Positions 11,648 to 25,475 of a stretch of DNA of 32,000 nucleotides are shown here, in pieces. The translations under genes were made by a program, and so were the position numbers. Under the pieces are notes generated by a model. It was not told the DNA's origin and did not search any database. It saw only the letters and a list, made by a program, of their open reading frames with translations. This stretch comes from Candidatus Jordarchaeales archaeon (GTDB lineage: Archaea > Asgardarchaeota > Jordiarchaeia > Jordiarchaeales > Freyrarchaeaceae). How positions within the stretch are numbered: position 1 is the first letter of the stretch; the number at the start of each line of letters is the position of its first letter. Where the stretch lies: positions 91,350-123,349 of the forward strand of contig JAWCFL010000002.1 of NCBI GenBank assembly GCA_038858525.1, read 5' to 3'.

Positions 11648-11810
11648 GCGGGGGTTGCCTAGTGGCTAGTTCCGGAGGAACCCATAAAAGGCGCTGGCCT
11701 GGAGTTTAAACCGCACCTGAAAGCCAGTGACCCGAAAAGGTGCATGACGCCGCGCGCCATCATGCGCTATCGGACGGGTCGCGTGGGTTCAAATCCCACC
11801 CCCCGCGCCA
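11648..11810 (+). tRNA. tRNA-Ser(GGA) with three BHB introns (11668-11687, 11705-11721, 11738-11775) and encoded CCA
   Basis: Removing the three inserts gives an 88-nt class II cloverleaf: GCGGGGG/CCCCCGC acceptor, GCCT/AGGC D stem, CTGGC-CTGGAGA-GCCAG anticodon arm, GACCC-GAAA-GGGTC variable arm, GTGGG-TTCAAAT-CCCAC T arm, G73, CCA. Confidence 0.88.
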
Positions 11811-11918
11811 AACACAACGATTCCCCCCAAACGTTGTTTTATGTCCTTCCTCCAGGAAATTTAGAGGAAAGAGCCGAGTAAGGCTATGTTTTGTGTGAAA
11901 AAATAGCTTGCTTGTTTT

Positions 11919-12350
11919 TTATATGTCAAGGACGAATACTAAGCGAGTTTTATCTTTTTTAATGTCGATTTCCATTTCGTGATACGTTGCTGCTTTGACG
12001 TCAGTCTTTGACACGTGCTTCTTGTGATTGAACTTTTCACCCTTTGCTGTCGCCGTTAACCTGTAACGTCCATCTTTCTCTTTCTCTATTGCCTTAACTT
12101 TAACCTCGGAGAATACTAGGCCCTCAGCGTCTGTTAGGTAAATGAATTCTTCAAGCCAGTTGTAAAGGAGACTCTCTAGGTCTTCTCCTTCAACAGTTAT
12201 GCTCCTTTCTACTTTAGGTTCGATCCTTGAGGTGTCCGTCATTAATTCGTAGAGTGCTTTAGCTGCCTCTTCGAAGGCTTCTTCGATGGTTTCCCCTTTT
12301 GCTTCTATTTTAGCATCAGCGGTGTGCTCGAGAAACCTAAAGCTGCCCAT
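11919..12350 (-). CDS. Archease (RtcB tRNA-ligase cofactor)
   Basis: FRFLEHTAD, AFEEAA.A, DLESLLYNWLEEFIYL, DVKAATYH, VLDI C-terminus. Start moved to ATG 12350. Confidence 0.95.
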   Translation of the reverse strand: MGSFRFLEHTADAKIEAKGETIEEAFEEAAKALYELMTDTSRIEPKVERSITVEGEDLESLLYNWLEEFIYLTDAEGLVFSEVKVKAIEKEKDGRYRLTATAKGEKFNHKKHVSKTDVKAATYHEMEIDIKKDKTRLVFVLDI

Positions 12351-12533
12351 AGTTAACACCTCACTCCAGTTTTTATCATAAGTGAAAGAAAAGCTTTCCT
12401 GAGTTTTAGAGAAGCATTTCTTAGAGTTTCGAGGAAGCCATGTGAAAGATCCGAGGGTGTTCTCTGTAATACTAAGCTTCAAAATGTTGGGGGTGAAGGA
12501 TGACTCGAGAAAGGTCTGGAGGATGAAGCTTGG

Positions 12534-13022
12534 TTGAAGTACGTTAAGGTTGTTTTTCTGGGGTTGCCCTCGGTTGGCAAGACGAGTATTATAACGCTCT
12601 TGAGCGAGAACAGGGTTGTTAAGAGCTACGACCCGACGATAGGTGTTGACTTTGGTTCTTTGTCGATCGGCGAATGTGAGGTCTGCATGTGGGACTTCGC
12701 AGGGCAGGATAGATTCAGGTTCCTTTGGGACGACTTCATAAAGGGGGCGAAGGTGATCTTCGCTGTGAGCGACTCGACCCCGAAAAACGTTCTGCAGACT
12801 AAGAGGATAATAGATGAAGTTAGGCAGAAAACTGATGCGGTTATCATAGGGATAGCTAACAAGCAGGATCTTCCAGGAGCCATGAAACCCAGTCAGGTGG
12901 AAAGCATACTTGAAGTTCCAACATACGGCATGGTTGCAATAGACCCTAGAAAGAGAGTTAAAATGTACAGCATTTTGAGGCAGGCTCTGGAACAGGTGGT
13001 TTTAACGGTAGCGAGCAACTAA
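12534..13022 (+). CDS. Ras-superfamily small GTPase (Arf/Rab/Roc-like)
   Basis: G1 GLPSVGKT, G2 PTIGVDF, G3 WDFAGQ, G4 NKQD. 162 aa, no CAAX box. Confidence 0.92.
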   Translation: MKYVKVVFLGLPSVGKTSIITLLSENRVVKSYDPTIGVDFGSLSIGECEVCMWDFAGQDRFRFLWDDFIKGAKVIFAVSDSTPKNVLQTKRIIDEVRQKTDAVIIGIANKQDLPGAMKPSQVESILEVPTYGMVAIDPRKRVKMYSILRQALEQVVLTVASN

Positions 13023-13095
13023 CCGGATTTTTTCCTTAGCGTTTTACAAAAAATTTATGTCTTTCTCCTTCAACCTGAATAAAAGGGGTTTCCGA

Positions 13096-13449
13096 GTGAG
13101 TTCATACAGTTTTGGACCGGCAGGAAAGTATTCGCCAAAACCACATGCTGCCCCTAAGGACATTAAGGAGATATCATTACTAGACCGCACTGTGAGAATT
13201 ATGGGTGTGGTGGTGGAGTCAACTTCAAGTTATATTGTCGTTGATGATGGAACAGGGATTATTAAAGTGCTCCTGCCGAGTGAAACTTCTGTTCCTGAAG
13301 TTGGGAGGATCGTTAGGGTTTTTGGCTCAGTATCCCAAAATGGGAAAGGAAGCGTATACATAAATGCGGAGATCATACAGGACATGAGTTCCTTAGATTT
13401 GGGGCTTTACAGGAAAGTTAAGAAGATTAAAAAGCATGGTTTAACATGA
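13096..13449 (+). CDS. Single OB-fold protein, RPA14/RPA3-like replication protein A small subunit
   Basis: VRIMGVV, DDGTG, VGRIVRVFG, INAEIIQDMS.LDL resemble the Thermococcales RPA14 pattern as recalled. Start uncertain (GTG 13096 or ATG 13057). Confidence 0.7.
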   Translation: MSSYSFGPAGKYSPKPHAAPKDIKEISLLDRTVRIMGVVVESTSSYIVVDDGTGIIKVLLPSETSVPEVGRIVRVFGSVSQNGKGSVYINAEIIQDMSSLDLGLYRKVKKIKKHGLT

Positions 13450-13480
13450 AGATTAAGGGTGTTATGAAGGAGGGGAAAAC

Positions 13481-23550: not shown

Positions 23551-23577
23551 TCACAGAGAAATACCGTCTTGAATGGT

Positions 23578-23711
23578 GGTCCCGTCGCCTAGCCAGGAGA
23601 GAAAAACTGAGAGGGCGCCGACCAGTAGGCGTAAGCCTTCTAAGCCGGAGTTCCCGGGTTCAAGTGTTCCCGCCATCAGGGCCGGAACTGAAAATCCCGG
23701 CGGGACCGCCA
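23578..23711 (+). tRNA. tRNA-Arg(TCT) with three introns (about 23600-23611, 23621-23634, 23665-23694) and encoded CCA
   Basis: Spliced 78-nt product: GGTCCCG/CGGGACC acceptor, GCCT-AGCCAGGAGA-GGGC D arm, CCGGC-CTTCTAA-GCCGG anticodon arm, CCGGG-TTCAAGT-CCCGG T arm, G73, CCA. Confidence 0.9.
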
Positions 23712-23731
23712 CAACTTCCTTTTAATAGCCA

Positions 23732-24697
23732 TTAAGATGTAAAGTGCTCGTAGCCCTTCCAGCTGATTTTGACCCAGCCTTCCTCGGGATGCTTAAACTT
23801 TACTTCGTTTTCTTGGATTACTCGTCCTATCCTGTGCAGAGAGCCGCCTACTTTTTCCACGGCTTTCACGGCGTCTTCCCACTTTGCTTCTGGTATCGTG
23901 GCGACCAGCTCATACTCCTCACCGCCGTAGAGCGCAAGTTCATAGGGGTCCAGCCCGTTTCTCTGGGCGAAAACTAAGACTTCAGGTGGAATAGGAACGT
24001 TGTCTATGGCGAAGCCAACCTTGCTGGCTTTGGCTAGCTCATGAAGGGAGGCTGCCAGCCCATCGCTACTATCAATGCACGATGACGCGTAACCTCCTTT
24101 AGCTAGGGTTACACCCTCCCTTATCCTCGGCTCAGGTTGATACACTGTTTTTAAGCAACGGTCCTTTTCGCTCCCCGATTCCAGTCCCTCCAAGAGTATT
24201 TTCAGCCCGGCTGCGGTTAACCCGAATGGCCCAGTTACCGCGACGACTTCACCCGGCTTAGCCCCCCCTCTCGGCACAAACTTCTCAGTCACACCTAACA
24301 CTGCGCCGGAGACAACGACCTCATCAGATTCATTAACGTCTCCTCCAAGGTAGCGTGCTCCGTAGAAATTCGAGGCTTCCTTTATTCCGCTTGCGATTTC
24401 AAGAGCATCGTTCACTTTAAACCACTTTGGAAGACCAAAAGCGTAAAGCCCTCCGATCGGCTCAGCCCCCTTAGCGGCTAGGTCACTTAGATTCATCACC
24501 ACAACCTTCCATCCTACCTGCTTCCAAGTCATCCCTGGTGGGACATCTGTTCTTGCAACAAGCATGTCCGAGCTAAAAACCAGCGTGATACCGCCAATCT
24601 GGATTGCCGCCGCGTCTTCACTTGAAGAGTACCAGTCATCTACGAAGCCCAAAAGACGCTCAACGAGCTTCCTCTCGCCTAAACCACTCAAATCCAT
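23732..24697 (-). CDS. thiL: Thiamine-monophosphate kinase
   Basis: GER.L, EDAA, SSDMLV..TD, NLSDLAAKGA.P, GGD, DSSDGL..SL, GGEEYELV. Start moved to ATG 24697. Confidence 0.93.
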   Translation of the reverse strand: MDLSGLGERKLVERLLGFVDDWYSSSEDAAAIQIGGITLVFSSDMLVARTDVPPGMTWKQVGWKVVVMNLSDLAAKGAEPIGGLYAFGLPKWFKVNDALEIASGIKEASNFYGARYLGGDVNESDEVVVSGAVLGVTEKFVPRGGAKPGEVVAVTGPFGLTAAGLKILLEGLESGSEKDRCLKTVYQPEPRIREGVTLAKGGYASSCIDSSDGLAASLHELAKASKVGFAIDNVPIPPEVLVFAQRNGLDPYELALYGGEEYELVATIPEAKWEDAVKAVEKVGGSLHRIGRVIQENEVKFKHPEEGWVKISWKGYEHFTS

Positions 24698-24773
24698 TAT
24701 AACGTACACCCCACCTAAAAAAGACGGAGAAAAAAATAAAGGTCACGAAAAAAGAGAAGCTAAAATGGAAAAT

Positions 24774-25217
24774 TTAGTAGCTTGGCTGTTCAACTCTCCA
24801 GACGCCATCCTCATCAAGTCTGACGAAGCACGGTACGGGCATTCCTCTCTCGCTACCATCTGGGTTCAACCTCTTGAAAAAGAACTTTCTCGCATTGGGG
24901 TAAGGCAGCTTCTCCTCCTTGAGGTATTCATAACGAATCCCTAGTTGATCGACATACTTTCTTCCAGTCGACCACCAGAAGCTGGGACTACTACCACTCC
25001 TGTCAGCCACACTCTGAAGCCACTTTAGTAACGTGCCACGCCAACCCTCATAATCACCCTTTTCTAAAAGCTCGTAGTGCAGTATTGCGATCTTTTTCGC
25101 CTCATCAGAGAGGCTTGCACCAATTTTTCCAGCTACGTCACTAGCAGTGTCCTTAATTGTTTCTTTAACTTTCTTTTCAAGTTTATCCTTAATACTTTTG
25201 ATCCTTCCACTCTCCAA
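24774..25217 (-). CDS. Hypothetical protein, possibly NTF2-like fold
   Basis: Open frame with protein-like charged composition, ending in a DEDGVWRV beta-hairpin. Start uncertain (TTG 25217, ORF extends to 25247). Confidence 0.6.
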   Translation of the reverse strand: MESGRIKSIKDKLEKKVKETIKDTASDVAGKIGASLSDEAKKIAILHYELLEKGDYEGWRGTLLKWLQSVADRSGSSPSFWWSTGRKYVDQLGIRYEYLKEEKLPYPNARKFFFKRLNPDGSERGMPVPCFVRLDEDGVWRVEQPSY

Positions 25218-25355
25218 TTTTTTAAGAAAAAAAAGGGAAAAAAACAATACTTAAGTTTTCTGACAATTTTACACCTGAAAACGAGAAAAACGAGAAACCC
25301 GTCAAGCTTCACCTAAAAAGCCGTTAAGCTTTCGGCGAAAAGCCCTTTCATGCAG

Positions 25356-25475
25356 TGGAGCCCCGGGCGGGTGTTCCGCTGAAGACTCGAACCCGCGGCC
25401 TGCGGCTTACGAGGCCGCCGCTCTACCGGTTACCCGCCACTCCAGAAGAAAGAGGAAGCCCTGAGCTACCGGGGC
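25356..25475 (-). tRNA. tRNA-Thr(CGT) with two introns (25460-25430, 25385-25373) and encoded CCA
   Basis: Spliced 76-nt product: GCCCCGG/CCGGGGC acceptor, GCTC-AGCCGGTA-GAGC D arm, GCGGC-CTCGTAA-GCCGC anticodon arm, GCGGG/CCCGC T stem, U73 (archaeal Thr), CCA. Confidence 0.9.

Follow-up and report, generated by a model that had tools for sequence, protein, structure and literature searches.

The stretch of DNA analysed here, referred to as the window, comprises 32,000 nucleotides (nt) of the Candidatus Jordarchaeales assembly GCA_038858525.1 (contig JAWCFL010000002.1), and the elements in question are its transfer RNA (tRNA) genes, each of which is interrupted several times. In three GC-rich intergenic stretches of the window, the pieces of an acceptor stem, a D-arm, an anticodon arm and a T-arm can be read directly, split by extra sequence. 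An insert-tolerant cloverleaf search of the entire window recovered exactly three tRNA genes, at the places named in a first-pass annotation of the same DNA:

11648-11810, plus strand: tRNA-Ser(GGA) gene, with exons 11648-11667, 11688-11704, 11722-11731 and 11771-11807, the discriminator at 11807 and CCA at 11808-11810.
23578-23711, plus strand: tRNA-Arg(UCU) gene, with exons 23578-23599, 23612-23620, 23635-23664 and 23695-23708, the discriminator at 23708 and CCA at 23709-23711.
25356-25475, minus strand: tRNA-Thr(CGU) gene, with its 5' end at 25475, exons 25461-25475, 25386-25429 and 25359-25372, the discriminator at 25359 and CCA at 25358-25356.

The 3' CCA is thus encoded by all three genes. 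The solver scores were 101 for tRNA-Ser(GGA), 96 for tRNA-Arg(UCU) and 98 for tRNA-Thr(CGU). After removal of the inserts, the products (84, 75 and 73 nt, respectively) form textbook cloverleaves, which ARAGORN accepted as intron-free with unchanged anticodons and named tRNA-Ser(gga), tRNA-Arg(tct) and tRNA-Thr(cgt). In comparison, the highest score among roughly 1,400 unrelated acceptor-like anchors from other parts of the genome was about 84, and this value was reached only across long stretches with four to five implausible 'introns'. The three interrupted tRNA genes are real, far beyond chance. Neither ARAGORN nor Rfam at the gathering threshold found any tRNA when the 32-kb window was scanned directly. 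In a genome-wide reconstruction, each of the three was the sole gene found for its anticodon. The metatranscriptome X1 contains 32% of the sampled words of window positions 16000-25600, from which no conclusion on expression is drawn.

The first-pass annotation had counted 3 + 3 + 2 introns, seven of them non-canonical, and the cloverleaf search recovered the same eight inserts, only one of which occupies the canonical position 37/38. For the inserts in the D-loops and in the variable arm, the precise ends may be off by a few bases. The inserts and their bulge-helix-bulge (BHB) motifs are as follows:

11668-11687, plus strand: Ser intron 1, 20 nt, D-loop; BHB with four of four central pairs (GTGG/CCAT) and a 5-bp intron helix.
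11705-11721, plus strand: Ser intron 2, 17 nt, canonical position 37/38; relaxed BHB with three of four central pairs and a 7-bp exon helix.
11732-11770, plus strand: Ser intron 3, about 39 nt, variable arm; BHB with four of four central pairs and both flanking helices in the register chosen here.
23600-23611, plus strand: Arg intron 1, 12 nt, D-loop; boundary ambiguous owing to AGA repeats, three of four central pairs, flanking helix absent.
23621-23634, plus strand: Arg intron 2, 14 nt, anticodon stem at 29/30; BHB with four of four central pairs (GCGC/GCGT) and a 4-bp exon helix.
23665-23694, plus strand: Arg intron 3, 30 nt, T-loop at 59/60; BHB with helices on both sides (full hBHBh'), a TTCA/TGAA central helix and two 5-bp flanking helices.
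25430-25460, minus strand: Thr intron 1, 31 nt, D-loop; BHB with four of four central pairs and a 3-bp intron helix.
25373-25385, minus strand: Thr intron 2, 13 nt, T-loop at 59/60; full hBHBh' with four of four central pairs, a 5-bp exon helix and a 2-bp intron helix.

A canonical BHB, i.e., four of four central pairs with at least one flanking helix, was present at six of the eight inserts; one insert showed a relaxed BHB and one no convincing motif. The full hBHBh' form was found for both T-loop inserts and, in the chosen register, for the insert in the variable arm of tRNA-Ser. For the latter, the register of the first-pass annotation, a few bases off, yields an equally long variable region. 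The central and intron helices of Arg intron 3 recur in the minimum-free-energy fold.

The orthologous genes of related genomes were compared. In the three genomes of the same genus (G001-G003), every window insert was found at the identical site, with nearly identical exons and with inserts that had drifted in length and sequence; the G001 orthologue of tRNA-Arg was not solved, and the comparison of this gene within the genus rests on G002 and G003. The lengths within the genus were 17-27, 13-17 and 30-39 nt for the three Ser inserts, 11-13, 14-15 and 29-30 nt for the three Arg inserts, and 26-33 and 12-14 nt for the two Thr inserts. Genome G004, which belongs to the same family and another genus, shares the first two Ser sites (17-27 and 13-17 nt in G001-G004) and the Thr site at 59/60 (12-14 nt in G001-G004). 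The Ser variable-arm insert occurs throughout the genus, but the variable arm of the G004 orthologue is uninterrupted. The Thr D-loop insert was likewise present in G001-G003 (26-33 nt), and the D-arm of G004 is uninterrupted; its tRNA-Thr gene carries an insert at 37/38 that the source genome lacks. For tRNA-Arg, the 29/30 site is occupied in G002-G004 (14-28 nt) and also in Freyarchaeia, and the 59/60 insert is found in the family (29-34 nt) and is missing from the Freyarchaeia orthologue.

The solver could not solve the Freyarchaeia tRNA-Arg orthologues, one of which was parsed by eye: it has the D-loop and 29/30 inserts in common with the window gene, lacks the T-loop insert and contains two other inserts. 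Counting this orthologue, the Arg D-loop site holds an insert of 11-15 nt in four to five orthologues, and in every parsed orthologue the insert ends in CTGA at its 3' side. Since this CTGA can pair with CAG of the D-loop, a minimal relaxed central helix of 3 bp appears to be conserved. In G015, a genome of another Asgard family, tRNA-Arg(TCT) is uninterrupted, has 75 nt and is base-for-base collinear with the spliced product. Thus, comparison of the orthologous sequences confirms the insert sites independently of the BHB motif. Because presence and absence differ among the genus, G004, Freyarchaeia and G015, gains or losses of inserts have occurred at several depths in this lineage.

The same approach was applied to the whole source genome, a bin of 63 contigs and 2.09 Mb that is 92.7% complete with an estimated contamination of 2.8%. 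Listing BHB candidates and excising subsets of them gave 150-200 candidates per locus and was replaced by a cloverleaf-first search. In this search, a 7-bp acceptor pair was fixed, the D-, anticodon- and T-arms were then fitted, and inserts of at least 10 nt were allowed at any junction, while the BHB score served only to decide between boundaries that were all compatible with the cloverleaf. Extended versions of the search also admitted genes that do not encode CCA, as well as two introns within the T-arm or within the anticodon arm. Since long random anchors were 'solved' with four to five fake introns at scores of up to 84, only scores of at least 85 were kept, and each product was checked by ARAGORN.

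In total, 42 genes with 39 anticodons were reconstructed, a number that is a lower bound and probably leans to less interrupted genes. ARAGORN accepted all 42 spliced products as intron-free with the anticodon unchanged. All 42 genes are interrupted, with 111 inserts or 2.64 per gene on average: one insert in eight genes, two in seven, three in 21, four in four and five in two. The first-pass annotation had allowed for most other tRNA genes being intron-free, which is not the case here; in intron load, the window is representative of the genome. Only 13 inserts (12%) lie at the canonical position 37/38. The commonest sites were the D-arm (32 inserts), 59/60 (14), 53/54 (11) and 58/59 (7), and the insert length had a median of 20 nt and ranged from 10 to 82 nt. 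Among the first 39 reconstructed genes, only 24 encode the 3' CCA. A scan of the genome revealed no orphan T-arms outside the reconstructed genes. In an all-against-all comparison of 103 inserts, no copying of introns between genes was detected beyond similarity among Ala isoacceptor copies, i.e., there was no transposition signal.

Direct scans of the whole genome yielded five tRNAs each with ARAGORN and Rfam. Of the ARAGORN matches, four correspond to reconstructed interrupted genes, and the fifth, a 'Pro(ggg)' on contig C27, looks spurious by eye. The direct ARAGORN scan also misnamed anticodons, reporting Val genes as 'Phe(aaa)' and '???' and Arg(CCT) as Leu. Some readings of the cloverleaf search itself were discarded: under class constraints and two-intron models of the T- and anticodon arms, a Leu(TAG) reading of the Glu(TTC) gene and a Leu(CAG) reading of the Trp(CCA) gene were rejected, and a two-intron reading of the Ala genes gave way to three introns under the extended model.

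Removal of such inserts calls for a splicing endonuclease and a ligase, for which the following genes were found (coordinates outside the window are given by contig):

C3:81835-82338: EndA paralogue of 191 aa.
C43:5750-6235: EndA paralogue of 198 aa.
11919-12482 of the window, minus strand: archease, the RtcB cofactor, adjoining the tRNA-Ser gene (Pfam PF01951, E = 1.1e-48).
G000:C1:35280-36587: RtcB tRNA ligase.

Both EndA paralogues match PF01974 and PF02778. The C3 copy aligns end to end with the catalytic alpha subunit of Aeropyrum pernix (3P1Z_B, E = 1.6e-48), and the Tyr/His/Lys triad is kept in this alignment. Its N-terminal loop insert aligns without gaps to that of A. pernix, with the lysine of IRKPK on the lysine of VEKPR (residue Lys44 by alignment count). 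The C43 copy lacks the loop, has alanine at the catalytic histidine position, keeps the Tyr and Lys positions and is closest to the enzymes of M. kandleri and M. jannaschii; it is read as the structural partner of C3. Taken together, the two sequences support a two-subunit (alpha-beta)2-type splicing endonuclease with a loop resembling the crenarchaea-specific loop (CSL) on the catalytic subunit. A broad-specificity endonuclease of the (alpha-beta)2 or epsilon2 type with a specificity loop had been anticipated in the first-pass annotation, and the two paralogues, with loop and lysine in the C3 copy, agree with this expectation.

Asgard archaea are known to carry an (alpha-beta)2 EndA with an L1/CSL loop (Kaneta et al. 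2018, PMC5829648), and in Crenarchaeota this loop and its lysine enable the enzyme to cut relaxed motifs at sites other than the canonical one (PMC5829648). With its loop lysine and triad in C3 and a second paralogue without the histidine, the predicted enzyme resembles the crenarchaeal (alpha-beta)2 EndA of A. pernix (3P1Z/3AJV) and P. aerophilum (2ZYZ). It differs in that the C43 copy is nearest to M. kandleri and M. jannaschii and not to a crenarchaeal beta subunit, and in that the heterotetramer is here a prediction. The catalytic domain is also homologous to that of eukaryotic Sen2/Sen34, and C3 matches both Sen34 and Sen2 at E values of about 1e-9 to 1e-10. The eukaryotic tRNA splicing endonuclease measures its distance to the body of the mature tRNA, and 37/38 is its only cleavage site. 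In the source genome, unlike with Sen2/Sen34, 88% of the inserts lie away from 37/38 and would depend on a local BHB. Two EndA matches were found in 25 of the 31 Asgard genomes searched (source genome included), among them families with few tRNA inserts. Since insert-poor families also possess two paralogues, EndA is a permissive background and not the cause of the expansion, and a 2026 preprint likewise concludes that it is permissive background (10.64898/2026.10.13.758758).

The three loci are very probably functional tRNA genes of Candidatus Jordarchaeum, each cut by two to three short archaeal BHB introns. We infer that the inserts are excised, and that this is done by the C3/C43 EndA. Each gene would be transcribed as a precursor of 120-163 nt, in which exon and intron sequence at each insert would fold into a BHB. 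The (alpha-beta)2 EndA would cut within both bulges, and RtcB, aided by archease, would rejoin the exons.

Across the genome, a canonical BHB at the exact boundary was observed for 52% of the 111 inserts versus 1% in shifted or shuffled controls, a figure that is somewhat inflated because the solver imposes the cloverleaf and the BHB breaks boundary ties. When a window of ±2 nt was allowed, the values were 53% versus 9-12%. This inflation counts against the reading as functional tRNA genes with BHB introns, and so do three further points. The 12-nt D-loop insert of tRNA-Arg(UCU) has no convincing BHB; genome-wide, 16 of the 111 inserts lack even a relaxed BHB; and genes with the anticodons GTT, GTG, TTG, TGT and CAA and a third CAT gene were not found, although wider anchor scans were made, the last of which covered part of the anchors. 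The six missing anticodons may belong to the unassembled 7% of the genome, to genes with acceptor-stem introns or to split genes.

It is unlikely that the BHB-less minority, composed mostly of short D-arm inserts, lies outside the classical EndA route, being either kept as oversized D-loops or recognised by the Asgard enzyme in an undescribed mode. If this were true, the tRNA-splicing machinery would be more permissive than in any characterised archaeon. Slightly less likely still is the more specific proposal that the short D-loop inserts without a BHB (12 nt in Arg-UCU, 10 nt in Arg-CCU) are not EndA introns at all and are retained as an enlarged D-loop or removed by an undescribed route. 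The three of four central pairs without a flanking helix in Arg-UCU would fit this proposal, as would the 16 inserts without a BHB class and the share of only about 33% canonical BHBs reported for D-arm inserts missed by tRNAscan-SE (10.64898/2026.10.13.758758). However, the Arg insert occupies the same site in four to five orthologues with its CTGA end able to pair with the D-loop CAG, the D-loop of the uninterrupted G015 gene has a normal length of 10 nt, and a D-loop of 22 nt would, from general tRNA knowledge, upset the contacts between G18/G19 and the T-loop.

Much less probable is a reading of the loci as tRNA pseudogenes in decay, or as artefacts in the assembly of the metagenome bin, with functional tRNAs encoded elsewhere. 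The bin indeed consists of 63 contigs, its contamination is estimated at 2.8%, and 7% of the genome is missing. Against this stand the lack of a second gene for any of the three anticodons and the conserved exons with drifting inserts in four independently assembled genomes. Moreover, neither ARAGORN nor Rfam detected an uninterrupted tRNA set, no orphan T-arms are left over, and a closed sister genome was reported with the same architecture (PMC11291895).

The interrupted genes are assigned to Candidatus Jordarchaeum on the basis of alanyl-tRNA synthetase (AlaRS) matches and kinship in GTDB. The AlaRS encoded in the window shows 90% identity to the enzyme of Candidatus Jordarchaeum sp. LHC_1308; for the Jordarchaeia metagenome-assembled genome QC4 the value is 85%, followed by other Jordarchaeia (60%) and Freyarchaeota (59-64%), with everything else at or below 47%; none of the close AlaRS matches belongs to Thermoproteales. 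In GTDB, three genomes share the genus, one further genome belongs to the family, and the order includes the complete Freyarchaeia-1 chromosome CP147778, while NCBI taxonomy lists the genus under Jordarchaeia, Promethearchaeati. Other genes of the window code for an Arf/Rab-like small GTPase, PCNA, primase, GINS, the proteins L11/L1/L10/P1, SRP54 and Pus10. By these matches, the genome is one of Candidatus Jordarchaeum (Jordarchaeia, Asgard) and not of Thermoproteales. The first-pass annotation had considered a probably non-Thermoproteales, Asgard-type genome, and both the 90% AlaRS identity to Jordarchaeum and the GTDB kinship bear this out; placement within Thermoproteales, where the observation would have been familiar, is contradicted by the close AlaRS matches to Jordarchaeia and Freyarchaeota.

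One record stands apart: the AlaRS of JAPDJY010000034.1, labelled 'Thermoproteota archaeon S9B3_HD70', is 76% identical, far above any true Thermoproteota match, and the entry is probably a mislabelled Jordarchaeia genome. That the contig stems from a Thermoproteales organism, in which such an intron density is classical, is therefore hardly credible, since apart from this one 76% match, most likely mislabelled, the best AlaRS matches are Jordarchaeum (90%), Jordarchaeia (85% and 60%) and Freyarchaeota (59-64%), the GTDB genus is common to three genomes and the order to the complete Freyarchaeia-1, and an Arf/Rab-like small GTPase is encoded in the window.

Several further tRNA loci outside the window were observed in the census:

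G000:C4:38169-38337, plus strand: tRNA-Arg(GCG) with inserts at five sites (D-loop, 29/30, 37/38, 50/51 and 58/59), each showing a canonical BHB.
G000:C1:75958-76112, plus strand: tRNA-Asp(GTC) with four inserts, two of which, at 32/33 and 37/38 of the anticodon loop, are separated by only five bases.
G000:C5:47059-47257, plus strand: tRNA-Trp(CCA) with three inserts, of which the 82-nt insert at 37/38 is the longest in the genome.
G000:C3:47276-47396, minus strand: tRNA-Gly(CCC), the sole Gly(CCC) gene found, with perfect stems and C at position 33 (loop CCCCCAA).
G000:C1, about 74105-74180, plus strand: apparent 5' part of an Asp/Glu-like tRNA, comprising an acceptor strand, a D-arm with an interruption and the anticodon region.

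Owing to the five-base distance between the two anticodon-loop inserts of tRNA-Asp(GTC), at least one of the two BHBs probably forms only after the other intron has been removed. The 82-nt intron of tRNA-Trp(CCA) contains ATGATGA and CTGA motifs that look like box C and box D, and a box C/D guide RNA within the tRNA-Trp intron is known in other archaea. With regard to tRNA-Gly(CCC), U33 is almost universal in the anticodon loop of tRNAs. For the Asp/Glu-like fragment, no T-arm or 3' acceptor strand was found within the following 250 nt, and the same upstream leader precedes the real tRNA-Asp(GTC) gene, located 1.8 kb further downstream; the fragment may represent a piece of a pseudogene, the scar of a duplication or one half of a split tRNA.

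Within the window, a PF04013 RNA methyltransferase gene lies directly upstream of the Pus10 gene and overlaps its predicted start (27115-29024, plus strand). PF04013 is the DUF358/TrmY family, whose product is m1-pseudouridine-54, and the TrmY-family enzyme and Pus10 have the same T-loop positions as their targets. Many introns of the source genome sit beside the T-loop positions of this enzyme pair. No Pfam match at E ≤ 0.001 was obtained for two open reading frames of the window, one of 751 aa (29321-31576, minus strand) and one of 157 aa (24774-25247, minus strand).

Both the intron expansion and the Asgard EndA type have already been published for this lineage, and the results obtained here agree on every point. 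In complete Atabeyarchaeia and Freyarchaeia genomes, 92-95% of the tRNA genes have introns, more than half of them several, and many of these are non-canonical (Valentin-Alvarado et al. 2024, PMC11291895). A preprint covering 90 Asgard genomes reported 2.0-2.4 inserts per gene after correction in Jordiarchaeaceae and Freyrarchaeaceae, with at least one insert in 97-98% of the genes of these two families and up to five per gene (Goswami et al. 2026, 10.64898/2026.10.13.758758). According to the same preprint, D-arm inserts are often missed by tRNAscan-SE and are BHB-poor, there is no general copying route, and, on the question of independent versus shared expansion, gains were repeated and apparently independent in Jordiarchaeia and Atabeyarchaeia (10.64898/2026.10.13.758758). 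Compared with these published Freyarchaeia, Jordarchaeia and Atabeyarchaeia genes, the window genes come from the same order and, by GTDB, from the same family as the preprint's Jordiarchaeaceae, and they differ in nothing in kind. The source genome, with 2.64 inserts per gene and all 42 genes interrupted, lies slightly above the published family mean, a comparison between different methods, as the cloverleaf was imposed here. As in the preprint, no copying signal was seen between unrelated tRNA genes.

Multi-intron tRNA genes are also a feature of Thermoproteales (Pyrobaculum, Thermofilum, Caldivirga; Sugahara et al. 2008, as cited in PMC11291895). The likeness extends to several BHB introns per gene, to non-canonical sites in the D-, anticodon-, variable and T-arms and to an (alpha-beta)2 EndA with the loop. 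In contrast, the phylum is another one and the density is higher here, with 2.64 inserts per gene versus 1.54 in Pyrobaculum calidifontis (10.64898/2026.10.13.758758). Related introns recur across genes in Thermoproteales, which has been read as transposition, whereas in the source genome only Ala isoacceptor copies are alike.

What the window adds is a completely worked-out example together with an independent census of one genome, and not a new phenomenon. For annotators, it matters that standard finders fail on such genomes: ARAGORN and Rfam reported five tRNAs each, and the real genes number at least 42. With essentially all of its tRNAs requiring several splicings, such a lineage is a natural system for the co-evolution of splicing capacity and intron load, a point that is already in print for this lineage.

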